This document shows, one piece after another, positions 5,518 through 31,975 of a stretch of DNA of 64,000 nucleotides (the stretch's first letter is position 1; the number at the start of each line of letters is the position of its first letter). Source of the stretch: an uncultured Thermoanaerobaculia bacterium (GTDB lineage: Bacteria > Acidobacteriota > Thermoanaerobaculia > Multivoradales > CAZRFU01); the NCBI GenBank assembly GCA_964599475.1, contig CAZRFU010000008.1, forward strand, positions 34,409 to 98,408, written 5' to 3'. Position numbers and translations under genes: made by a program. The notes beneath the pieces were generated by a model that was not told the DNA's origin, searched no databases, and saw nothing but the letters and a program-made list of their open reading frames with translations.

Positions 5518-6823
5518 AGGTCTCCCCGCCGCCGTCTTCGACGAAACCGCTGCCGCTCGGACGATCGACCTCGAGAGCCACGAGCTCGGCACCCACGCGC
5601 CAGGGCCCGGCCTGCCGCAGCACCGCCACCGTCACCGCCTGGCCGTCCTCGTCACTGATCTCGCCGATCGAGCCATCACGATCACGTGTTTCGAACTGGT
5701 CGACACGGACCGAAAGGCGCCACCGATCCCACCTTCGCGACACCAACAGGTACGCCGCCGCAAAGTCGGCGTCGACGAAGTGGGGCCTGATTCCCATGCC
5801 GGTGTCGCCGATGAGCACCTCGGCCAGGATCGACCATCCGCTCGGGCGATCGACTCCAACACCTGCCGCCACGGTGCGCGTCCGCCAGGCGTACTGATCG
5901 CCGTGCAGCTCGCGATCGCCGCGGTTGTCGGCAATCCGCAGGCGGAAGGTCAGGCCGCGGCGGTCGTCGCGCCAAGCCACCCGGCCGCTCCAGCCCACGC
6001 GCCCGTCGAGATCTTCGGTCAGGGGACGGGTCCCCTGGTCGCGCTGCACCCCGAAGATGCCGTCGTCCTCGAGGCTCGAAAGCGGCGGCAGCGCGATCGT
6101 CTCGCCGAGGGTGGTCAGGCGGTCGTGCAGCGAGAACCCGCGCCAGGCGAGAAGTGTCCCGGCGGTGTCGTTGCCGCCGCCGAGTGCGCCGGCAACGGTG
6201 AGACGCCCGTCGCCCAGCGCAGCGGTCCAACGCCCTTCGACTCCGAGCTCCCGGCTCTCTTCGCCGACCCAACTGTTGATCGCCGACAGGGTCAGGGTAT
6301 ACGGCGAGTGCCACCCACGCTCGACATTCTCGAACGACGTCGCGGGGAAGAATAGACCCGCACGAACACCGACTTGATGCCGGTCGCCCACTGTCCGCTG
6401 GAGATCCGCGAAGAGCTCGACCAGGCCGGCAGCTTCACCTTCGACTTCGTCGTCCTCGAGCCGAGCCAGCCCATGAGCTACCACTCGAACACCTGGGGCA
6501 GGAGTCCACACCAGACCAAGGTCGGTTCCCAGCGAGCCGGACCATTCATCGTCTCCCGATCGTCCATCGAGACCGAATCGGCCCCAGCCACCCGCGAGAA
6601 AGCTCGAGCCCGCACCTCGAACGGCCCCAGCGTCCATCGTTGCGGCACCGAACCACTCGAGCTCGGCTCCCAGCGCCCCAGCGGCGAGGCCCGGAGCCAG
6701 AGCGAGAACCAGGACGAGACCTTCGACTCGGTGCCGCAGCCGTCCGCGTCCACCACTGCACGACGGCTCACTCTGCAGCGACGAGGCTACTTCGATCGTG
6801 GGCAATGGAGAGCTTGCAGACAC
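5489..6823 (-). CDS. Outer-membrane beta-barrel (porin-like) protein, function unknown
   Basis: Signal-like LVLVLALAPGLAAGALG. Alternating amphipathic beta-strand pattern rich in G/R/D/W. C-terminal aromatic residue (..LELRRSW). The start is uncertain and may be internal to the 444-aa ORF. Confidence 0.55.
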   Translation of the reverse strand: MSASSPLPTIEVASSLQSEPSCSGGRGRLRHRVEGLVLVLALAPGLAAGALGAELEWFGAATMDAGAVRGAGSSFLAGGWGRFGLDGRSGDDEWSGSLGTDLGLVWTPAPGVRVVAHGLARLEDDEVEGEAAGLVELFADLQRTVGDRHQVGVRAGLFFPATSFENVERGWHSPYTLTLSAINSWVGEESRELGVEGRWTAALGDGRLTVAGALGGGNDTAGTLLAWRGFSLHDRLTTLGETIALPPLSSLEDDGIFGVQRDQGTRPLTEDLDGRVGWSGRVAWRDDRRGLTFRLRIADNRGDRELHGDQYAWRTRTVAAGVGVDRPSGWSILAEVLIGDTGMGIRPHFVDADFAAAYLLVSRRWDRWRLSVRVDQFETRDRDGSIGEISDEDGQAVTVAVLRQAGPWRVGAELVALEVDRPSGSGFVEDGGGETFRLELRRSW

Positions 6824-9439: not shown

Positions 9440-9670
9440 ATGGCACGGACCAAGGTCTTTCGATCGGGTAACAGCCAAGCCGTCCGACTGCCGGTCGGCT
9501 TCAGAGTCGAGACGAAGGAGCTCGAGATCTTCCGGCGTGGCGGCGAGATCGTGCTGCGCGAGCCGCTGGGCTCGATGGCGCGGGCGTTTCACCTCCTCGC
9601 CGAGCTCCCGGAGGACGCCCTCCCAGAGTCTCGTGAAGACGAGCCGCCGCAGGAGCGGAACGGCTGGTGA
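9440..9670 (+). CDS. vapB: AbrB/SpoVT-fold antitoxin (VapB family)
   Basis: 76 aa starting MARTKVFRSGNSQAVRLPVGF (SpoVT/AbrB swapped-hairpin signature). GGAGG RBS. Stop overlaps the vapC start (ATGA). Confidence 0.8.
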   Translation: MARTKVFRSGNSQAVRLPVGFRVETKELEIFRRGGEIVLREPLGSMARAFHLLAELPEDALPESREDEPPQERNGW

Positions 9671-10077
9671 TGGCGCCCCGGTACGTCCTCGACACCAACA
9701 TCTGCATCTACATCGCCAAGCGCCGGCCGATCGAGGTATTGCGCCGATTCGAGCAACTCGAGCCGGGCGCTGCGGCGATTTCGGTGGTGACGTGGGGTGA
9801 GCTGCTCTTCGGCGCAGAACGTAGCGTTCGCCGACCGGAGGCGCTGGCAGTCCTAGAGGAGTTTCGAACCGTCCTCCCGGTGCTCGCCATGGCCGACTCC
9901 GTGGGAGTTCACTACGCCGCCATTCGGGGCGACCTGGCGCGGCGCGGCGAGCCGATAGGCAACAACGACCTGTGGATCGCGAGCCACGTCCGAGATCTCG
10001 GCGCGGTGCTCGTGACCAACAACACCCGGGAGTTCCTCCGAGTGCCTGGCCTGATCGTCGAAAACTGGGCCGGGTAG
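9667..10077 (+). CDS. vapC: PIN-domain ribonuclease toxin VapC
   Basis: YVLDTNICIY N-terminal acidic motif, NNDLWIA and C-terminal VTNNTREF. Typical 136-aa PIN toxin. Confidence 0.9.
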   Translation: MMAPRYVLDTNICIYIAKRRPIEVLRRFEQLEPGAAAISVVTWGELLFGAERSVRRPEALAVLEEFRTVLPVLAMADSVGVHYAAIRGDLARRGEPIGNNDLWIASHVRDLGAVLVTNNTREFLRVPGLIVENWAG

Positions 10078-10189
10078 CAGCGGTCCTTGCGCCCCGGAGC
10101 GCGGAACTCGCCGGCAACGCTCCCCCCACCAACCCGCCGGGTTTCCACTGGGCCTCGGTCTTCGAGCTGCTCGACGTTTCCGCCCCACA

Positions 10190-11716
10190 CTACGACACCA
10201 CCCAACCCAACACTTCCGCCTGGAAACCGCCGCGCTCGGGCTCCGGGCGCTCCTCCACCACTCCCGCCAGCCGCAGCGCCAGAGCTTCCTTGTAGGCCAG
10301 CTCCATCTGCCGCGCGATCTGGACGCGCTGCGCCTGCGGCGAACCGGCGCCGTGCATCGACTCGGTGAGGTAGCCGACGGCGTTGCGGCCGAGCGTCATG
10401 TTCTCGATCAGCCGCAGGATTCTGAGCCGCGTGTCGACCGGCACGGCCGGCGCCGCCTGCAAGTATTTCTCGAGCACTCGAGCGAGCTCCGGGTGCTCGA
10501 GGTCGCGCTGGGACGGCAACGTCGCCACCAGGCCACCTGCGAGATCCTGGGCCAGTCGCCCGAGCTCGTAGGGGATCTTGGTGACGTGGTGTTTGCAGAC
10601 GTTTGCCAACATCTCGTCGTTCAAGTAACACCCCGACGCGGTTGGCCGAGCGCGGTGGGAGGAGGCAATGCCGATGCCGTAGATGGTCTCGTTCAGGTGA
10701 CTCATCTCGACCAACTTGTCGCGGACGTGGGAGGCCTTTTCTGTGCCGTTGGCCCGTGCGATCGCCGAGGCGGCGCCGATCAAGACGTCGCCAACACCAG
10801 CCTTGCAGACGTAGCTGCGTCGGTGGTAGCAGGTGAACCGCTCCACCAGGGTGGCGGCGAATTCGTGCTCGCCGTCCATGAACACCAGCTCGTCCGGAAT
10901 GAAGACGCGGTCGAAGATCACCAAGGCTTCCTGGCCGGCGTAGCGTGCGTTGCCCTGGTCGATCTCGCCGCCCTCGAGGTGGCGCGTGTCACACGACTGG
11001 CGCCCATAGACGTAGGTGATGCCGGGCGCGTCGACCGGCACCGCCCCCACGATGGCGTAATCGGCGTCGCCCTCACCGAGGCGCATGGTCGGCATCACCA
11101 CCATCCAATGCGAATTCAGACACCCGGTCTGGTGAGCCTTGGCGCCCGTAATCCACACTCCTTCGGCGCTGCGCTCGACCACGTGCACGAACAGGTCGGG
11201 GTCGCGTTGCTGATGCGGCGCTTTGGAGCGATCCCCCTTGACGTCGGTCATCGCCCCGCCGACGACCTCGTTGTGGCGTTGCACATCGGCGAGGAATGAT
11301 CGCAGCCGTTGGTGATACCCGGTGCCGCGAGCCTGGTCGATGTCGTAGGTCACCGAAAACAAGGCGTTGAAGGCATCCATGCCGACACAACGCTGAAAAC
11401 ACGTGCCGGTCAGCTGACCGAGCTTGCGCTGCATGGTGTTCTGGGCCACCAGGTCGTCGGCGCTGGTTGCGACGTGAAGGAAACGATTGACCCGCTCACC
11501 GGTCAGGGCCGAGATCGCGGTCGCAAGCTCCGGCTCCCGAAGCGCGAGCTCGTAGGTTTCGGCTACCGCGTTGACCGACGGGGCGATCACCGGATGGTCG
11601 ACCGGCTCGTCGATCAACTCGCCGAACAGGAACACCCGCAGGCCACGGCCGCGCAGGCTCTCACGGTACTGGTCTCCGGTTTCGATCCGAGCTCGCACGC
11701 GGACCGGGGCCTTCAC
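10190..11716 (-). CDS. abfD: 4-hydroxybutyryl-CoA dehydratase / vinylacetyl-CoA isomerase family (HpaB-fold) enzyme
   Basis: 508 aa. Fe-S ligand motif TGTCFQRCVGMDA and a family-wide collinear pattern (GAMTDVKGDRS, GAKAHQTG). GTG start at 11716 overlaps the upstream stop (GTGA). Confidence 0.8.
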   Translation of the reverse strand: MKAPVRVRARIETGDQYRESLRGRGLRVFLFGELIDEPVDHPVIAPSVNAVAETYELALREPELATAISALTGERVNRFLHVATSADDLVAQNTMQRKLGQLTGTCFQRCVGMDAFNALFSVTYDIDQARGTGYHQRLRSFLADVQRHNEVVGGAMTDVKGDRSKAPHQQRDPDLFVHVVERSAEGVWITGAKAHQTGCLNSHWMVVMPTMRLGEGDADYAIVGAVPVDAPGITYVYGRQSCDTRHLEGGEIDQGNARYAGQEALVIFDRVFIPDELVFMDGEHEFAATLVERFTCYHRRSYVCKAGVGDVLIGAASAIARANGTEKASHVRDKLVEMSHLNETIYGIGIASSHRARPTASGCYLNDEMLANVCKHHVTKIPYELGRLAQDLAGGLVATLPSQRDLEHPELARVLEKYLQAAPAVPVDTRLRILRLIENMTLGRNAVGYLTESMHGAGSPQAQRVQIARQMELAYKEALALRLAGVVEERPEPERGGFQAEVLGWVVS

Positions 11717-12063
11717 TTCTTCTCTTCTTTGAGCACCCAACCGATCACGGCCGACACGATGCTGACCAGCAGCGCCCCGAGGATCGACCAGCCGAAGCCA
11801 TCGGTGCTGAAGCCCGGCACCACCATCGCCGCCAAAGCAAAGGCGATGCCGTTGACCACCAGCAAGAACAGCCCAAAGGTCAGGATCGTCAAGGGGAGCG
11901 TCAGGATGGTGATGAGGGGCCGGATGATCGCGTTGACGAACCCGAGGATCAGCGCGGCCACCGCCAGCGCCACCCACGACGCCACGTGGACACCCGGCAG
12001 CAACCACGCGGTGACCCCCAAAGCGGCGGCGACGGTCAGAAGATGCATCAGCAGCTTGGACAT
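11713..12063 (-). CDS. Phage holin family IV-like (DUF360-type) small membrane protein
   Basis: 116 aa with 3-4 TM helices. Motif GFVNAIIRPLITILTLPLTILTFGLFLLVVNG is typical of this family. ATG is preceded by GAGGAGG. Confidence 0.6.
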   Translation of the reverse strand: MSKLLMHLLTVAAALGVTAWLLPGVHVASWVALAVAALILGFVNAIIRPLITILTLPLTILTFGLFLLVVNGIAFALAAMVVPGFSTDGFGWSILGALLVSIVSAVIGWVLKEEKK

Positions 12064-12079
12064 GGCTCCTCCTCGAGGA

Positions 12080-13030
12080 TCAGGTTGCGACGGCTCGTGC
12101 GTGCGCGCTCGACCCTCCAACGTGCTCATGAGCGTGGTACGACGACCGTACCAGCGGCCCGGACTCGCAGTGGGCGAAGCCGAGCTCATGGGCAAAGCGT
12201 TTGTAGTCGGCAAACTCGTCCGGATGGACGAAGCGATCGACCGGCAAGTGTTTGGGGGTCGGCTGGAGGTATTGGCCGATAGTGAAGATCTCGACGCCGG
12301 CCGCACGCACCTCGCGCATCAGCTCGAACACTTCGTCCGGCGCTTCGCCGAGCCCCACCATGATCCCGGTCTTGACTCGACCAGCGTACTCACCACGATC
12401 GCGCCGCGCCGCAGCGTCTGCCAACAGGCCGACGGTCCGGTCGAAGCGGCTGCCGGGCCGGGCCTTGCGGTACATCCGCGGCACCGTTTCGACGTTGTGG
12501 CTGAAGATCTCGGGTCGCGCCGCCAGCACGATGTCGAGGGCATCAGGCACGCCACGAAAGTCGGGGGTCAGAACCTCGACGGCGGTCGTCGGACTCTCAT
12601 CGTGTACCGCCCGGATCACTGCCGCCCAGTGACGGGCACCGCCATCGGGCAAATCGTCGCGGTCGACCGAGGTGATCACGGCGTGCTGCAAACCCATCAC
12701 CCGTACGGCTTCGGCAACGTGCGCCGGCTCCTTGGGATCCGGCCCCTTCGGGGGACGCCCGGAGGTCACCGCGCAGAAGCCGCAGCGACGCGTGCACACG
12801 TCGCCGAGGATCATGAAGGTCGCCGTGCCGTGTTGGCCCCAACACTCGTAGATGTTCGGGCACTTGGCCTCTTCGCAGACGGTGTGCAGCTCGAGCTTCT
12901 CGACCAACTTGCGCACTTCGTGGTAGCGCGGTGGGGTCGACAGCCGGATCCGCAACCACTCCGGCCGCCCCTCTCGCCCGGGCGTGTGGGAGCGGGTCTT
13001 GGAGCCGATTTGGATCAACGAATCGCTCAT
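12080..13030 (-). CDS. lipA: Lipoyl synthase
   Basis: CEEAKCPNIYEC auxiliary cluster motif and radical-SAM CTRRCGFC motif. Full-length 316 aa. Confidence 0.95.
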   Translation of the reverse strand: MSDSLIQIGSKTRSHTPGREGRPEWLRIRLSTPPRYHEVRKLVEKLELHTVCEEAKCPNIYECWGQHGTATFMILGDVCTRRCGFCAVTSGRPPKGPDPKEPAHVAEAVRVMGLQHAVITSVDRDDLPDGGARHWAAVIRAVHDESPTTAVEVLTPDFRGVPDALDIVLAARPEIFSHNVETVPRMYRKARPGSRFDRTVGLLADAAARRDRGEYAGRVKTGIMVGLGEAPDEVFELMREVRAAGVEIFTIGQYLQPTPKHLPVDRFVHPDEFADYKRFAHELGFAHCESGPLVRSSYHAHEHVGGSSAHARAVAT

Positions 13031-22851: not shown

Positions 22852-23081
22852 CGATCTCTCTCGTGGATTTCGTCCCGACTCCACCGCATCCCGGGCTCGG
22901 GCCGGGCCGGCGACGTGTCCCACGCGGCCTCGAGCTCGGCAACCGTCTGTGCAGCTTCGGGACCCTGGACCAGCGTGGCGAGGTAGTCGCGGACCATCTG
23001 ATTGAGGGACGTGCCCCGCCGCTGAGCCAGTCGCCGGACTCTCTCCACGGTTTCATCCTCGATCGAGAGGGTCACGTTCAT
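22848..23081 (-). CDS. Ribbon-helix-helix-type antitoxin partner of the PIN toxin
   Basis: 77 aa starting [34 protein letters not shown] (beta-strand then two helices, RHH pattern). Translationally coupled upstream of the PIN gene. Confidence 0.65.
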
Positions 23082-23223
23082 GAACACAGGATACGTGTGG
23101 CTCGTTCGGGCGTCAACATCCCCAGGCTGCAGTTCCCCTTCTCCCGTTTCCTGCCATGCGATACTTACGCGCTCCACCCGCCGCAGCGCGGCAGAGCACG
23201 CAACCAGCAGCACGAGCACGACC

Positions 23224-25764
23224 ATGACGCACTTCTACGACCCCTCGACGATCGAACCCAAGTGGCAGGGCATTTGGGAGGAACAGAAGGCCTTCCGTAC
23301 TCCGGACGATCCGGCGATCCTGGCGTCGCGCCCCAAGTTCTACGTGCTCGACATGTTCCCCTACCCCTCCGGCGCCGGCCTGCACGTGGGCCACCCCGAG
23401 GGGTACACCGCCACCGACGTGGTCGCCCGCATGAAGCGCATGCAGGGCTTCAACGTGCTGCACCCGATGGGCTGGGACGCCTTCGGCCTACCGGCAGAGC
23501 GCGCGGCGGTGCGAGAGGGGATCCACCCGGCGATCATCACCACCCGCAACGTCGACACCTTCCGCGGGCAAATCAAACGCCTCGGCTTCTCCTACGACTG
23601 GGATCGCGAGATTTCGACTGCGTCGGTCGACATGTACCGCTGGACCCAGTGGATCTTCCTCAAGCTCTACGAGAAGGGCCTTGCCTACCTCGCAGACGTC
23701 CCGGTCAACTGGTGCCCGGCACTCGGCACGGTGCTCGCCAACGAAGAGGTCAAGGACGGCAAATACGTCGAAACCGGCGACCCGGTCGAAAAGCGCCTGA
23801 TGAAGCAATGGATGTTGCGCATCACCGCCTACGCCGACCGGCTGCTCGAGGACATCGACGAGGTCGACTGGCCCGAGCACGTCAAGGAGATGCAGCGCAA
23901 CTGGATCGGCAAGTCCGAAGGCGCTGAGATCACCTTTGCGATCGAAGGGCGCAGCGACAGCATCACCGTCTTCACCACCCGCCCCGACACCCTCTTCGGC
24001 TGTACCTACTGTGTGCTCTCGCCCGAACACCCGCTGGTCGAAGCGATCACCACTCCCGAGCACCGTGCCGCCGTCGAGGCCTACATCGCCGAGGCCAAGG
24101 CGAAACCCGAAGGCGAACGCACCGCCGAGGCCAAGGTCAAAACCGGCGCCTTCACCGGCGCCCACGCGTTGCATCCCGTGACCGGTCAACCGCTGCAGAT
24201 CTGGGTCGCCGACTACGTGCTGATGGGCTACGGCACCGGCGCGATCATGGCGGTCCCGGGGCAGGATCAACGCGACTGGGACTTCGCCAAGGCCTTCGGC
24301 CTGCCGATCGTCCGCACCGTGCAACCCCCCGCGGACTTCCCCGACGAACCGTTCCTCGGCGAGGGACCGGCGATCAACTCGGACTTCCTCGATGGACTCG
24401 GTGTCGCCGAGGCCAAGGCGCGGATGATCGCCTGGCTCGAAGAGCATGGCCGTGGTGTCCGCCGGGTCCAGTACCGCCTGCGCGACTGGTTGTTCTCGCG
24501 CCAGCGCTACTGGGGGGAGCCCTTCCCGATCGTGCACACCGAAGACGGCGAGGTGGTCGCGCTCTCGACCGACGACCTGCCGGTCGAGCTGCCGCCGGTC
24601 GACGAATACCGCCCCACTGACGATGGCCAGCCGCCACTCGCGCGCGCGCCGCAATCGTGGCGCGAGGTCACGCTTCCGGACGGCCGCACCGCCCTGCGTG
24701 AAACCAACACCATGCCGCAGTGGGCGGGGTCGTGTTGGTACTACCTGCGTTACCTCGACCCACACAACGATCAGGCGCCGTTTTCGCAGGAAGCCGAGAA
24801 CTACTGGATGCCGGTCGACCTCTACGTTGGCGGCGTCGAGCACGCGGTGCTGCATCTGCTCTACGCCCGCTTCTGGCACAAGGTGCTCTACGACTGCGGC
24901 CTGGTGTCGACCAAGGAGCCGTTCCAGCGTCTGTTCAACCAGGGCATGATCCTGGCCTACTCCTACCGCGACCAACAGGGGCGTTACTACCACCCGAACG
25001 ACGTCGTCGACCCCGAGGGCGAGGCCAAGAGTGCCGCGGGCGAGCGCCTCGAGGTCCAGGTCGAGAAGATGTCGAAGAGCAAGCTCAACGTCGTCAACCC
25101 CGACGACGTGATCGGGCGCTACGGCGCCGATGCGATGCGGCTCTACGAGCTCTTCATGGGCCCGCTCGAGCAGCAGAAGCCGTGGCAGATGAGCGGCGTC
25201 GAGGGCGTCGCGCGCTTCCTCGCGCGGGTGTGGCGCCTGGTGGTCGACGAAGAAACCGGCGCGCTCTCGTCACGCCTGGTCGACGAGCCGATGGCCAATC
25301 ACCCCGAGCTCGCCAAGGTCGTCCACCGCACCATCAAGAAGATCACCGAGGACGTGCCGGCCCTGCGCATGAACACCGGCATCTCGCAGATGATGATCTG
25401 CGTCAACGCCCTCACCAGCGCGGCCGCCCTCCCCCGCGAGGCCGTCACCACCTTCCTGCGCGTGCTCGCCCCCTGGGCGCCCCACCTCGCCGAGGAGCTG
25501 TGGCAACGCCTGGGCCAGGAAGGCCTCGTCTCCCTCGCGCCGTGGCCGCAGCACGACGAAGCCTTCTGCGTCGACGACGAGATCACCATCGTGGTGCAGG
25601 TCAACGGCAAGAAGCGCGACGAGCTGGTCGTGCCCAAAGACGCCGACCGCGCCGAGATCGAACGCCTGGCCCTCGCCAGCGAGCGGGTTCAGAGGCATCT
25701 CGGAGGCGTTGCGCCGAAGAAGGTCATCGCCGTGCCGGGTCGGTTGGTGAATCTGGTCGTCTAG
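23224..25764 (+). CDS. leuS: Leucine--tRNA ligase
   Basis: 846 aa. [17 protein letters not shown] (HIGH) and [10 protein letters not shown] (KMSKS) motifs, plus a CP1 editing region. ATG at 23224 matches the canonical N-terminus [15 protein letters not shown]. Confidence 0.97.
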
Positions 25765-26649: not shown

Positions 26650-26693
26650 GAATCGCAGCACTGACCTGCGGCGGCACCCTGTAGACTGCGGCC

Positions 26694-27224
26694 GTGGACT
26701 TCGCTCGTGTCCTCCGCCACCTGTCGACGTGGTTCGAAGCTCAGAACCAGCCCTACGCACTGATCGGTGGAGGCGCGCTGGCTGCCTACGGTCATCTGCG
26801 GACGACCCTTGACCTCGACTTCGTCGTCCCGGCCGAGATCCAGGACGAGCTGGTGGACTTCATGGTGGAGTCGGGCTACGAAACCCTCCACCGCTCGTCC
26901 GGCTACTCCAATCATCTCAACGCCAACCCTGAGCTCGGGCGGGTCGATTTCGTTTATGTTTCCGGCCCGACCAGGACTGCGCTCTTCGCCGAAACGCGCA
27001 AACTTCCCGGGCCCGATGCCCTAGAGGCTCCGGTGCCCAAGCCGGAACACCTCATCGCGATGAAGGTCCAGGCCATGAAGAACGACCCTTCGCGGCGATT
27101 TCAAGACCTCGAGGACATCCGCTTCCTCGTCTCTCTGCCCGATGTCGACCGCGACGCGGTGCGAGACCGCTTCGCCCGAGCTGGACTTGAGGAGCGCTTC
27201 CGTGAGCTCACCGAAGACCTCTGA
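26694..27224 (+). CDS. Minimal nucleotidyltransferase-fold protein (AbiEii/DUF6036-like)
   Basis: 176 aa. NTase signature ALIGGGALAAYGHLRTTLDLDFVV (G-G..., DxD), later PEHLIAMKVQA and DLEDIRFL, typical of small NTase toxin-like proteins. Confidence 0.6.
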   Translation: MDFARVLRHLSTWFEAQNQPYALIGGGALAAYGHLRTTLDLDFVVPAEIQDELVDFMVESGYETLHRSSGYSNHLNANPELGRVDFVYVSGPTRTALFAETRKLPGPDALEAPVPKPEHLIAMKVQAMKNDPSRRFQDLEDIRFLVSLPDVDRDAVRDRFARAGLEERFRELTEDL

Positions 27225-29659: not shown

Positions 29660-30361
29660 CTAACCCCTCCCCCGGGCCGACCTCCGACCGTGGTACCAAC
29701 ACAACGGCCCAAGCGCCGCGTACAGCCAGCCCGGGAATCCGACGCGCAAGCCGACCCCGCTGAGTGCCGCCACCACCGACGCTGCTCCGACCGCGACGAA
29801 CAGCAGGTAGTGCCGATGGAGGAACAGGGCCTCGCGAGCCTGATCGGCGCTCAGCCCCAACACCACCCGGCGGCGCCAGGCGTAGCGATACATCAGCGAG
29901 ACGCAGGCAAAAATCGCCGCAAACCCAACGCTGTAGAGCGCAAACAGCTGCCCGAGCTCGGCCCAAGTCGCCACCGCCCCCGGGCCGCCCTGTCCGAAAC
30001 CCGGGATCATCGAGACCATACCGCGAGCCATGAACTTGAGCGGGTAGACGTAGAACAGCAACAGGAACAGCAGGGTGCTGTTGAGGAACACGGTTACGCC
30101 ATCGCCCAGTCGGTAGCGGCGAAAGAAGGCCCGGTGTACGGTCCAGATCGCGAGCAACGCTCCGAAACTGATCGCAAACGAGCCGAATCCCGGCAGCTCC
30201 GCGACCAGCGCCGCGTAGGTGCTCGGGACCTCGAGCGACACGACCAACAGCGTCGCAGCAAACGCGAAGACCGCGTCGCTCAACGCTTCGAGACGCGTGG
30301 AGTCGGGCTGAGACATGAGTCGGGATTGTAGCGAGGACTTCATCACGCTTCGACGGTCCAC
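29660..30361 (-). CDS. TMEM175-family (DUF1211) potassium channel-like membrane protein
   Basis: Signature RLEALSDAVFAFAATLLV in TM1 and a 6-TM layout. The start is ambiguous (ATG at 30361, 30343 or 30316). Confidence 0.8.
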   Translation of the reverse strand: MDRRSVMKSSLQSRLMSQPDSTRLEALSDAVFAFAATLLVVSLEVPSTYAALVAELPGFGSFAISFGALLAIWTVHRAFFRRYRLGDGVTVFLNSTLLFLLLFYVYPLKFMARGMVSMIPGFGQGGPGAVATWAELGQLFALYSVGFAAIFACVSLMYRYAWRRRVVLGLSADQAREALFLHRHYLLFVAVGAASVVAALSGVGLRVGFPGWLYAALGPLCWYHGRRSARGRG

Positions 30362-30458
30362 TCGCTCTCATCGCCGGTACGGCGCCCGAGCGCGTCATCA
30401 CCGTGAAGGCTGTCATCGTCCCGCTGGTACACTCGCAATCTCCACGAGGAGGACGATC

Positions 30459-31055
30459 ATGGCCTGGATCGAAGTGATCTCACTCGAGCGTGCAACCGGC
30501 GCCCTGCGGCGCCAGTACGAGGCCGCCCTGCGCCGAGCCGGACGGATCTGGCGGATCGTGTCGATCATGAGCCAAAACCCCAAGACCCTCGACGCCTCGA
30601 TGGGTCTGTACGCGGCGGTCATGCACGGACCTTCTCCGCTGTCGCGGGGCCAACGGGAGATGTTGGCGGTGGTGGTTTCGGCCACCAACCACTGCGTCTA
30701 CTGACTGCGCGCGCACGCCCACGACCTCCGGGCCGAGGTCGCCGTCAGTTTCGGAATCGAAGACTCGCAGGAAGCCGACGACTTCGTCCACCTGATCGCG
30801 AGCGACTGGCGACGCGCACCCTTGGCCGCCGTCGACCAAGCTCTCTGCGGATTCGCGGAAAAGCTCGCCCGCACTCCCGATGCGATGGAGCCCGCCGATC
30901 TCGAGGCCCTGCGACACCTCGGCCTCGACGATCGCGCAATCCACGATGCGACCCAGGTCGTCGCCTACTTCTCCTACATCAATCGCATCGCCGACGCGCT
31001 CGGCGTCGAGCCGGAGGACTTCATCCGCCCGTGGGAGGAGCGCCGGGAGCCATAG
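30459..31055 (+). CDS. AhpD/carboxymuconolactone-decarboxylase-family peroxidase-related enzyme with in-frame UGA (candidate selenocysteine) at 30702-30704
   Basis: The track splits it into 30315..30704 and 30822..31055, but both are in the same frame with no other stop. The joined 198-aa product MAWIEVISLERATG...SATNHCVY[UGA]LRAH...VVAYFSYINRIADALGV is collinear with the family. The UGA sits where the second Cys of the NxCxYCxxxH redox motif is expected. GAGGAGGA RBS before ATG 30459. Confidence 0.7.
30723..30740 (+). promoter_or_regulatory. GC-rich hairpin 18 nt downstream of the in-frame UGA (candidate bacterial SECIS element)
   Basis: GACCTC cgggcc GAGGTC is a perfect 6-bp stem with a G-rich 6-nt loop. 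One extra C-G pair is possible below the stem. Confidence 0.35.
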
Positions 31056-31122
31056 CGGCGCAATGGACCCTCGGTGGTGCGCAGCGGGTTGAATGCAATC
31101 GGGCCGTCGGGGGACCACTTGC

Positions 31123-31150
31123 CGGGTACCGGGTACCGGGTACCGGGTAC
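31123..31150. repeat. Perfect 4x heptanucleotide array (CGGGTAC)x4
   Basis: cgggtac cgggtac cgggtac cgggtac. Bracketed by a 9-nt direct repeat acttgccgg (31117-31125 and 31149-31157). Intergenic. Confidence 0.9.
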
Positions 31151-31348: not shown

Positions 31349-31975
31349 ATGAAGACCACCACGACCTCTCGCTTTCGCGCCCGAACCCACGGATGGATCG
31401 TCGTCGCCGCCGCACTGGTGAGCCCGGGCCTGGCGCTCGCAGACTTGCCCTCCCCCCACGAGCTGCATCGCGAGGTCCGGGAGCATGTCCACGACGTGTT
31501 GCGGCATCTCGAGCGAGTTCCGGATCACATCGAACGCGCCCATGAACGCCACCTGCAGGTGTTCTTTGGCGGGCGTGAGTACTACCGCCCGCATCGCCAC
31601 GAGCACGTGACCTACCACTTCCCGGTGCGGATCGACGGTCACATCTCGTACCGCCCCTACTCCTACTGCGACGGTCGGCTGATCGGGTCGGCTCGGCCGC
31701 AGTTGTGGATCGATTGGGGTCGCACCGACGCCGGCAGCTGGTGCGACCGCTGCCGCGGCCACTTCCCGCGCAACCACGGCCACTTCGACCACGACCGCTC
31801 CCGCCGCGACCACTACGATCGCCGCGAATATCGCCACGACCGCCGCGAATACCGCGACGACCGGCGTCACGACCGCCGCCGCGAGTGGCGCGACGACCGC
31901 TGCGATCGCTGTGAGCGAGGACGGTGCGACAACGATCATCGCCGCCACAACCACCGCAAGCCCCGTCGCTGGTGA
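31349..31975 (+). CDS. Secreted His/Arg/Asp-rich protein with low-complexity C-terminal tail
   Basis: ATG after GGAGGA. Signal peptide MKTTTTSRFRARTHGWIVVAAALVSPGLALA. Very His-rich body and a DRREYRHDRREYRDDRRHDRRREWRDDR tail encoded partly by a 21-nt tandem duplication (31817-31858). Confidence 0.55.
   Translation: MKTTTTSRFRARTHGWIVVAAALVSPGLALADLPSPHELHREVREHVHDVLRHLERVPDHIERAHERHLQVFFGGREYYRPHRHEHVTYHFPVRIDGHISYRPYSYCDGRLIGSARPQLWIDWGRTDAGSWCDRCRGHFPRNHGHFDHDRSRRDHYDRREYRHDRREYRDDRRHDRRREWRDDRCDRCERGRCDNDHRRHNHRKPRRW

Follow-up and report, generated by a model that had tools for sequence, protein, structure and literature searches.

At 30459-31055 on the plus strand of the window (the whole 64-kb stretch of DNA analysed here, from an uncultured bacterium) lies a single reading frame of 199 codons, which ends in a TAG and contains one internal stop, TGA 30702-30704, at codon 82 (context ...SATNHCVY*LRAH...). 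The ORFs 30315..30704 and 30822..31055 are both in this frame, and translation of 30459-31055 agrees with the original prediction, in which the two ORFs shared one frame interrupted by this TGA only. The Shine-Dalgarno sequence GAGGAGGA upstream of ATG 30459 suggests that this codon, and not ATG 30315, is the true start. The features of the locus are as follows.

30446..30453, plus strand: Shine-Dalgarno sequence GAGGAGGA, 5-6 nt before the ATG, as read from the sequence
30459..31055, plus strand: complete CDS, ATG to TAG with one in-frame UGA, for a predicted 198-residue AhpD-like (TIGR01926) selenoprotein with selenocysteine (Sec) at position 82
30657..30659, plus strand: codon for Glu67, the first residue of the proton-relay motif E-x11-C-x-Y-U-x3-H, invariant in alignment A1
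30693..30704, plus strand: redox motif C79-V80-Y81-U82 (TGC GTC TAC TGA), aligned with CxYC of Cys homologues and with CVYC of PDB 6K40
30702..30704, plus strand: UGA codon 82, read here as selenocysteine; TGA in 90/90 orthologous genes, Cys in distant homologues
30714..30716, plus strand: codon for His86, the last relay residue, invariant in alignment A1
30722..30741, plus strand: SECIS-type hairpin with a 7-bp stem (30722-30728/30735-30741) and the loop CGGGCC (30729-30734), MFE -10.5 kcal/mol

The GC content at third codon positions of the gene is 0.85 upstream of the UGA and 0.80 downstream. We scanned the window for in-frame TGA codons that interrupt a gene and have a coding signature before and after them, and the site at 30702 was unique. 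The other match of the scan, at 2935, was rejected, as it is the stop of one gene with the next gene following directly in the same frame.

The two ORFs are one gene of 198 codons for an AhpD-like antioxidant protein. It is exceedingly improbable that they represent two genes or a split protein, in which an 81-residue N-terminal product is accompanied by an independently started C-terminal product. The halves are indeed listed as separate ORFs, and the C-terminal half stands as a protein of its own in many databases; however, the first possible start past the TGA, TTG 30822, is 39 codons on, and a product initiated there would be without the invariant His86 and the conserved HAHDLRAEV. Furthermore, the 18-nt spacer after the TGA and the hairpin that follows it, which sits within codons for (H)DLRAEV, are coding sequence in the same frame whose encoded residues are conserved, and the solved homologues are single chains spanning both halves. 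The annotation can be corrected by merging ORFs 30315..30704 and 30822..31055 into a CDS at 30459..31055, with codon 82 given as selenocysteine.

Family and redox motif

With Sec written as Cys, the protein matches the NCBIfam family TIGR01926 ('peroxidase-related') at 137.7 bits, against a cutoff of 81.8 (E = 3.4e-40), with residues 2-187 aligned to profile positions 1-177 of 178. It also matches the Pfam CMD domain PF02627 at 43.6 bits, against a cutoff of 23. These matches bear out the proposal that the joined ORFs give a full-length 198-residue peroxidase-related protein of the AhpD fold. Five AhpD-like relatives of solved structure, 6K40 (E = 4e-24), 2OYO, 2PFX, 3C1L and 2PRR (E = 4e-24 to 2e-16), match over residues 19-186, or about 165 residues, and belong to the same length class of about 190-200 amino acids. 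From the CMD match and these five structures, the all-helical AhpD/CMD fold is predicted for the window protein.

The AhpD proton-relay pattern, E-x11-C-x-[H/Y]-[C/U]-x3-H, is present as E67-x11-C79-V-Y-U82-x3-H86, and E67, C79, Y81 and H86 are invariant in alignment A1. In this alignment the UGA shares its column with the second cysteine of CxxC, and that column holds Cys in P0058, P0072, P0094, P0114 and P0119. Homologues at 37-45% identity likewise have Cys at the UGA82 site, and UGA82 aligns with the second Cys of CVYC/CLYC in the alignments to 6K40 and 2OYO. The UGA thus replaces the second redox Cys, as originally claimed. The Cys homologues of A1 differ from the Sec clade in a further respect, being without HAHDLRAEV and the stretch of about nine residues after it. 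When 6K40 and 2OYO are aligned by hmmer, these chains have gaps past the DLRAEV segment.

6K40 is DR1765 of Deinococcus radiodurans, and its motif NxCVYC...H matches that of the window protein. In DR1765 and the other four solved proteins, the position of Sec82 is taken by Cys. The passage of PMC8945050 that cites Zhao et al. 2020 reports that a DR1765 mutant is sensitive to H2O2 and that its complementation needs the CxxC cysteines.

The similarity to AhpD itself is more distant. The relay of M. tuberculosis AhpD consists of Glu118, Cys130, His132, Cys133 and His137 (PMC3141380), and the window protein, with Glu67, Cys79, Tyr81, Sec82 and His86, shares with it the fold superfamily and the relay spacing. 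The motif spacing of PA0269 (PMC3141380) also matches, with Glu36 equivalent to Glu67 of the window protein; like PA0269, the window protein has Tyr rather than His in the middle of the relay. The score with TIGR00777, the model of canonical AhpD, was 24.3 bits against a cutoff of 191.95, which places the window protein outside that subfamily, as superfamily-level kin only. In contrast to canonical AhpD, the window gene has no adjacent ahpC or lipoamide-system gene; indeed, no gene for AhpC/peroxiredoxin or lipoamide dehydrogenase was found next to it or among the window ORFs scanned.

A second selenoprotein model, NF041238 (AhpD_rel_CFYUT, 'alkylhydroperoxidase-related (seleno)protein'), corresponds to 'hypothetical protein 1' of the Sargasso Sea study and has a related AhpD-type domain with CxxU. 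The window protein scored 67.3 bits with it, below the cutoff of 175, and carries CVYUL rather than CFYUT. Its 198 residues cover only positions 151-337 of the 357-position profile, so it is without the N-terminal part.

If Sec is present, it would stand in for the second cysteine of CxxC in AhpD, amid the relay set Glu67, Cys79, Tyr81, Sec82 and His86. Because Sec82 lies within this proton-relay set, a cycle is expected in which the protein alternates between selenol/thiol and a Cys79-Sec82 selenenylsulfide. Like AhpD-like proteins, it may reduce hydroperoxides directly or re-reduce a partner peroxidase, these being presumed substrates; by analogy with M. tuberculosis AhpD it should act as a peroxiredoxin reductant or a weak alkylhydroperoxidase.

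The UGA codon among orthologues

The orthologue set (n = 90) consists of the window gene and 89 genes in 88 loci. The assemblies are labelled Chloroflexota, Latescibacterota, Gemmatimonadota, Planctomycetota, Calditrichia, Actinomycetota and Bryobacterales (seven phyla or comparable groups), and the orthologues are 52-72% identical to the window protein over its full length. The site of codon 82 is TGA in 90/90 genes and never TAA, TAG or a Cys codon. None of the 90 has a further in-frame stop, and divergence by codon position is 0.33/0.25/0.57 upstream of the UGA and 0.30/0.29/0.60 downstream; the sequence past the TGA evolves in a coding fashion. At this codon, Cys is found in the more distant homologues and in the solved structures, and TGA in all of the orthologues examined.

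The nearest orthologues of the window gene are from Chloroflexota. The leucyl-tRNA synthetase (LeuRS) of the window organism is nearest to Acidobacteriota MAGs, many of them labelled Thermoanaerobaculia. The best identities in genome collections are 72% for the AhpD-like protein and 73% for LeuRS.

At closer range, three Logan contigs of 2.4 kb (L011-L013), each from a separate SRA run, match the window at 98.7% identity. They keep both the TGA and the hairpin, and one of them was found in 6 samples. They were the only matches to the protein of the C-terminal ORF in an exact look-up, which for two neighbouring window genes gave no match. The nearest strain variant has six substitutions in the gene, five of which are synonymous (four of these downstream of the TGA) and one non-synonymous. 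These data effectively refute the idea that TGC or TGT was turned into TGA by an error of sequencing or assembly, and we give it virtually no chance. A single-base change would give back the canonical CxxC, but the same TGA is present in the three contigs from different SRA runs and in all 89 orthologues from independent assemblies. The original prediction had named such an error as one ground for its rejection; another was that orthologues would all carry TGC or TGT, with disabling mutations in this copy, and every orthologue was found to carry TGA.

The gene could also be a pseudogene or relic, either an AhpD-like gene disabled by a nonsense mutation or an intact Sec gene in a genome without Sec machinery, with only the 81-residue fragment being made. 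Gene callers divide the gene into ORFs of 81 and 77 residues, and Sec-decoding genes are not visible in the window (see below), as would fit a relic. However, the stop has stayed TGA throughout the orthologues and has nowhere become TAA or TAG, the downstream frame has no more stops and shows coding-type evolution, and the nearest strain variant differs mainly by synonymous changes. The motif residues and the hairpin are intact as well. We therefore consider a relic very improbable.

Some 'full-length' homologues in public protein databases have W at the site, as would fit a UGA that is decoded as an amino acid other than Sec (Trp, Cys or Gly), whether through near-cognate decoding, a suppressor tRNA or a changed genetic code (4 or 25). 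Both W entries that we checked are, however, TGA read by a gene caller with another code: the DNA of L174 has TGA, and P0004 does not translate with table 11. Within the window, TGA is the ordinary stop of 14 of the 26 other Pfam-supported genes. The site aligns with a catalytic Cys, so that Trp or Gly would abolish the redox centre, and a hairpin that conforms to a SECIS element, with signs of selection at the RNA level, lies at the expected distance. Decoding other than as Sec is thus highly improbable. Rare metagenome variants have CGA (L175) or GGA (L176) at the site, both real codons in the DNA, which indicates that the Sec codon can be lost. An explanation of 'G' at this site in database proteins as code-25 translation was ruled out by the real GGA in L176.

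The hairpin downstream of the UGA

The core hairpin, GACCTC cgggcc GAGGTC (30723-30740), lies 18 nt past the TGA, and the pair C30722-G30741 adds a seventh base pair. The published bSECIS model (PMC13188914) has a loop of 3-9 nt, a stem of 4-16 bp, a G in the first two loop positions, a spacing of 16-37 nt between UGA and loop, and an MFE of at most -7.5 kcal/mol. The window hairpin fits on all counts, with a loop of 6 nt that starts C-G-G, a stem of 6-7 bp, a spacing of 24 nt and an MFE of -10.5 kcal/mol. It also resembles the bacterial SECIS consensus (bSECISearch; archetype E. coli fdhF) in being a coding stem-loop directly 3' of the UGA, with a small loop and G[G/U] near the 5' side of the loop. 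By contrast, Rfam gave no match at gathering thresholds in the whole window, and none to its SECIS families at E <= 10 in 30600-30850. A permissive Rfam match near the hairpin (SAM/SAH, 10 bits) was dismissed as spurious. The loop motif CG[G/U]G and the stem GACCUC/GAGGUC are specific to this AhpD-like family.

Taken by itself, the hairpin stands out only mildly. In the window, which has 67% GC, 4.8% of all TGA trinucleotides are followed by a perfect SECIS-like hairpin with 6 bp or more, and 1.9% by one with 7 bp; the z-scores of single-sequence folding, -1.8 to +0.6, are not significant in this GC-rich context and were given no weight. It is far beyond chance only when related sequences are compared, because TGA is found in 90/90 orthologues and the hairpin covaries.

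Over the 90 orthologues, 99.6% of the hairpin cells are paired. Compensatory double changes occur in 11 cells, and the observed values were reached by 0 of 500 shuffles. In nine cases GAC..GGTC has become GAT..GATC, and in two GACC..GGTC has become GACT..AGTC; no C-A mismatches were seen. RNAalifold on the orthologues gave the identical 7-bp helix; a longer lower stem (ACUGAC with GUCAGU in the window fold) was rejected, as it is not conserved in the alignment. The apical loop is always CG[G/U]GNN, and the stem GACCUC/GAGGUC is near-invariant across phyla.

Synonymous choice within the hairpin is also skewed. The Arg codon in the loop is CGG or CGT in 90/90 genes, against 39% elsewhere in the same genes, and CGC, which makes up 45% elsewhere in these genes, is never used (0/90). 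The Leu codon is CTC in 86/88 (29% elsewhere), and the Val codon is GTC or GTT in 80/80 (55% elsewhere). The encoded peptide DLRAEV could explain part of the hairpin's conservation, but peptide selection as its whole cause is disfavoured by the synonymous-site and compensatory data. As judged from these sequence comparisons, the hairpin is under selection at the RNA level. The original proposal of this hairpin as a SECIS candidate is thus upheld by the published bSECIS model and by the compensatory changes, although no Rfam SECIS covariance model matched.

We noted that the SECIS of the Sec clade hardly varies among assemblies whose labels span at least seven phyla or comparable groups, with the stem GACCUC/GAGGUC, the loop CG[G/U]G and a distance from the UGA that is always 18 nt. 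It fixes the peptide HDLRAEV and is accompanied by an insertion of about nine residues that is absent from Cys forms.

Probable selenocysteine decoding and the AhpD-like CxxU family

From these sequence features, the internal UGA almost certainly encodes selenocysteine. Taken as a whole, 30459-31055 (plus strand) is very probably one gene whose 198-residue product is an AhpD-like thiol/selenol oxidoreductase of TIGR01926, with UGA82 decoded as Sec by means of a SECIS hairpin. A ribosome reaching UGA codon 82 would meet, 18-37 nt further on, the hairpin with its 7-bp stem and CGGGCC loop, acting as a bacterial SECIS. The hairpin would recruit SelB-GTP-Sec-tRNA(Sec), selenocysteine would be inserted, and translation would continue to TAG 31053-31055. 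We infer that Sec is actually inserted in the window organism and that selA, selB, selC and selD are present in its genome.

The 64-kb window holds no selA, selB, selD or tRNA-Sec that could be detected by ARAGORN, Rfam, Pfam on about 40 ORFs, or tblastn with E. coli SelA, SelB and SelD, and no tRNA-Sec was found near the orthologues in 60 loci. At one orthologue locus (L068), the gene is followed after 182 nt by the start of a bona fide selB, which scores 327.6 bits with TIGR00475 (cutoff 242). Among the matches listed, full-length SelB homologues occur in at least two MAGs labelled Thermoanaerobaculia, as well as in other Acidobacteriota; selA and selD lie next to selB in one of the SelB loci listed, and a tRNA-Sec is present in another. 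None of the assemblies among the matches listed, a sparse sample, is common to the SelB matches and the list of AhpD loci, and the co-occurrence scan shows only that SelB exists in related taxa.

AhpD-like families had been put forward as reported selenoproteins, and this was confirmed from the literature. The AhpD-like CxxU family (COG2128/TIGR01926) was first described from the Sargasso Sea metagenome (PMC1088965), was represented by 299 Sec sequences in the GOS survey as 'AhpD-like 1' (PMC2398784), and is also tabulated in PMC13188914. Catalogued since 2005, it ranks with the most abundant families of selenoproteins known from marine metagenomes (PMC1088965, PMC2398784). The window protein passes TIGR01926 and has CxxU with Sec at the second redox position, and in its gene, too, the in-frame UGA precedes a SECIS hairpin that lies in the coding region and has G in its apical loop. 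By family model and motif there is no essential difference; the window copy comes from an uncultured bacterium and is split by gene callers.

The window gene is a further, mis-annotated member of a long-known and abundant selenoprotein family, and leaves existing knowledge of AhpD-like CxxU selenoproteins unchanged. It implies that this uncultured bacterium, apparently one of the Acidobacteriota, has the Sec-decoding trait in use and puts selenium into its peroxide or redox defence. Public protein collections systematically mishandle the family, listing C-terminal fragments or reading the TGA as Trp, and its unusually uniform SECIS could serve as a clean search model.

It is conceivable, though we think it unlikely, that the Sec clade of TIGR01926 is a distinct, horizontally mobile and 'self-contained' selenoprotein module. 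If so, it would be a natural test case for one SECIS read by very divergent SelB proteins, and the insertion might mark a substrate other than that of Cys-type AhpD-like proteins.

Comparison of the gene neighbourhoods revealed no family-wide partner gene across 89 loci. The only synteny around the orthologues is lineage-restricted, extends to at most 12 of the 89 loci, and involves an Ada-like regulator and ABC permeases.

Reading frame and active site of the AhpD-like gene

The gene at 30459-31055 (+ strand) spans 199 codons of a single frame, in which the only internal stop is the TGA at 30702-30704 and which ends with the TAG at 31053-31055. Translation confirmed the original prediction that the ORFs 30315..30704 and 30822..31055 share this frame with no other interruption; the product has 198 residues, and UGA is the codon for residue 82. 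The choice of ATG 30459 as the start proved correct, as it is preceded by a ribosome-binding sequence:

30446-30453, + strand, Shine-Dalgarno sequence GAGGAGGA, immediately 5' of ATG 30459

On either side of the TGA, third codon positions are enriched in GC, as is typical of genes here (the window is 67% GC). In a six-frame scan of the window, in-frame TGAs with coding signal on both sides were seen only at this site and at a trivial gene junction at 2935.

With Sec82 entered as Cys for profile scoring, the protein passed the NCBIfam model TIGR01926 'peroxidase-related enzyme' (137.7 bits versus a cutoff of 81.8) and the threshold of Pfam CMD (PF02627), in agreement with its prediction as a full-length, peroxidase-related AhpD-fold protein. 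Membership in canonical AhpD (TIGR00777; 24.3 versus 191.95 bits) and in the longer CFYUT (seleno)protein model NF041238 (67.3 versus 175 bits) was rejected. The nearest solved structures, 6K40 (DR1765 of Deinococcus radiodurans; E = 4e-24), 2OYO, 2PFX, 3C1L and 2PRR, are AhpD-like proteins of roughly the same length. Sec82 aligns opposite the second Cys of CVYC/CLYC in 6K40 and 2OYO and, as the Cys homologues also indicate, UGA indeed takes the place of the second redox Cys. The spacing of Glu67, Cys79, Tyr81, Sec82 and His86 is that of the AhpD proton relay, which is Glu118/Cys130/His132/Cys133/His137 in M. tuberculosis AhpD and Glu36/Cys48/Tyr50/Cys51/His55 in PA0269 (PMC3141380).

UGA as a probable sense codon, from orthologues

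Two scans of one-genome-per-species contigs gave 88 usable loci. The 89 orthologues at these loci share 52-72% identity with the window protein and come from assemblies labelled Chloroflexota, Latescibacterota, Gemmatimonadota, Planctomycetota, Calditrichia, Actinomycetota and Bryobacterales. The original prediction regarded TGC/TGT in all orthologues, together with further disabling mutations in this copy, as one outcome that would speak against it; instead, TGA was found at exactly the codon 82 position in 90 of 90 genes (89 orthologues and the window), with no TAA, TAG or Cys codon at the site and no second in-frame stop in any of them. Cys occupies the site in more distant homologues (37-45% identity; for example, Bacteroidota- and Flavobacteriales-labelled entries). 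Divergence at the three codon positions was similar downstream (0.30/0.29/0.60) and upstream (0.33/0.25/0.57) of the TGA, indicating that the frame after it is under protein-coding selection.

Three Logan contigs (2.4-kb contigs of a close strain), which come from separate sequencing runs and are 98.7% identical to the window, keep the TGA. This excludes an assembly error, against which the prediction had been hedged, and argues against a sequencing error. Of the substitutions that separate the contigs from the window within the gene, five are synonymous and one is non-synonymous; this pattern, together with the retained TGA, counts against decay in the window lineage and hence against a pseudogene or relic. 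A reassigned genetic code is excluded, because 14 of the 26 Pfam-supported window genes end at TGA as their normal stop.

On the Latescibacterota chromosome OZ250150.1 (locus L091), two paralogues lie ~4.3 kb apart (Sec codons at 5983 and 10244), and both have the TGA and the downstream hairpin. Rare metagenome variants (loci L175, gene 501-1064, and L176, gene 367-963; also protein P0019) keep the hairpin and carry CGA (Arg) or GGA (Gly) for TGA. These represent true alleles that have lost Sec, or else read errors in the codon's first base.

The hairpin and the selenocysteine machinery

The predicted hairpin GACCTC-CGGGCC-GAGGTC was confirmed at 30723-30740, with C30722-G30741 extending the stem to 7 bp. 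By itself the hairpin gives weak support: 4.8% of all the window's TGA trinucleotides are followed by a perfect hairpin of similar kind, and its folding z-scores were unremarkable. Comparison of sequences supports it strongly. When the 90 genes were aligned without gaps, the six stem pairs were formed in 99.6% of cells, and 11 sequences had compensatory C-G to U-A double changes (nine at columns 33/46, two at columns 34/45). In 500 column shuffles, neither pairing nor covariation ever came up to the level observed, and pairing was 24-50% when the register was slid. RNAalifold independently recovered this helix, with a seventh pair that covaries as well; the apical loop is invariably CG[G/U]GNN. 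Synonymous codon choice in the hairpin is likewise constrained when set against usage in the same 90 genes. The loop Arg was CGG or CGT in 90 of 90 (background 39%) and never CGC (45%), Leu was CTC in 86 of 88 (29%), Val was GTC or GTT in 80 of 80 (55%), and Ala was never GCG (34%).

The published bacterial SECIS model has a loop of 3-9 nt, a stem of 4-16 bp, G in the first two loop positions, a UGA-loop distance of 16-37 nt and an MFE of at most -7.5 kcal/mol (PMC13188914); the corresponding values here are 6 nt, 6-7 bp, C-G-G, 24 nt and -10.5 kcal/mol. These values fit the model, and the hairpin lies where the original prediction expected a SECIS. The element had no match in Rfam, which is unsurprising for a family-specific SECIS. 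The peptide it encodes, HAHDLRAEV, is conserved in the Sec clade and not in the Cys clade, and is followed in the former by ~9 extra residues without counterpart in the latter.

No tRNA-Sec, selA, selB or selD was found within the 64-kb window. In a Planctomycetaceae MAG (locus L068), a bona fide selB (10758-12734; TIGR00475, 327.6 bits versus a cutoff of 242) starts 182 nt downstream of the Sec gene (10001-10576), a direct genomic link of the AhpD-like Sec family with the Sec machinery. Among the matches listed, full-length SelB homologues occur in at least two Thermoanaerobaculia-labelled MAGs and in other Acidobacteriota; selA and selD lie beside selB at one of these loci, and tRNA-Sec at another.

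Shown here are the signal for recoding, membership in the family and the match of the active sites. We infer that the organism very probably inserts selenocysteine at UGA-82, with SelB binding the hairpin at 30722-30741. A pseudogene or relic, non-Sec read-through, a sequencing error and two genes, even taken together, are improbable. The gene would then encode a CxxU AhpD-like oxidoreductase that cycles through a Cys79-Sec82 selenenylsulfide. By analogy with DR1765, the closest characterised relative, it would serve in peroxide or redox defence; the DR1765 mutant is sensitive to H2O2, and its complementation requires the CxxC cysteines (PMC8945050).

Genomic surroundings and annotation of the family

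The window is ordinary chromosome, with genes including RecQ, NadE, LipA, an AcrB/HlyD efflux pair, LeuRS, DinB and an MreB-like protein. Other features are:

9637-10077, PIN-domain toxin gene
26685-27224, AbiEii-type nucleotidyltransferase toxin gene
29660-30367, - strand, TMEM175-like channel gene, divergently transcribed, on one flank of the gene
31122-31150, intergenic, ~70 nt past the gene's stop codon, 4.1 perfect tandem copies of the heptamer CCGGGTA
~31349-31975, + strand, unannotated 208-aa ORF on the other flank (gene call on Logan contigs; no Pfam match)

The heptamer repeat holds repeated GGTACC palindromes. The N-terminus of the 208-aa ORF resembles a signal peptide, and the tail is full of His, Arg, Asp and Cys residues (RDHYDRREYRHDRREYRDDRRHDRRREWRDDR...). 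We found no family-wide conserved neighbour, shared neighbours reflecting lineage-restricted synteny only, so the gene looks free-standing. Whereas the window LeuRS (23080-25764) shares 66-73% identity with its nearest counterparts, in Acidobacteriota MAGs (several of which bear the label Thermoanaerobaculia and one Holophagae), the nearest AhpD-like orthologues are from Chloroflexota (72%), and only one of the best 80 AhpD-like loci is acidobacterial (Bryobacterales). This contrast is compatible with patchy distribution or horizontal transfer.

AhpD-like selenoproteins had been anticipated, and the literature bears this out. An AhpD-like CxxU protein (COG2128) was described as a new selenoprotein family from 27 Sargasso Sea sequences (PMC1088965). 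In the GOS data it ranked fourth among selenoprotein families by abundance (299 sequences; PMC2398784). Members also occur in sequenced genomes (PMC1794560), and in a 2026 review the family appears as TIGR01926, with CxxU given as its motif (PMC13188914). The window gene is therefore a correctly recognised, mis-annotated new member of an already catalogued family, helpful for annotation and no surprise to specialists.

Public protein collections mis-handle the family. Close homologues (matches P0001-P0120 from a 5.8-billion-protein collection) form two groups: among those listed, the majority are C-terminal fragments whose first codon directly follows the TGA, and Trp stands at the site in 14 'full-length' entries, the two of these that were checked being TGA read with another genetic code. 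In seven metagenome ORFs (P0036, P0038, P0042, P0047, P0049, P0100 and P0105), the AhpD-like C-terminal half is joined to a YqeY/GatB-type domain (PF09424), which suggests a fusion, or read-through into a conserved neighbour gene in one lineage.
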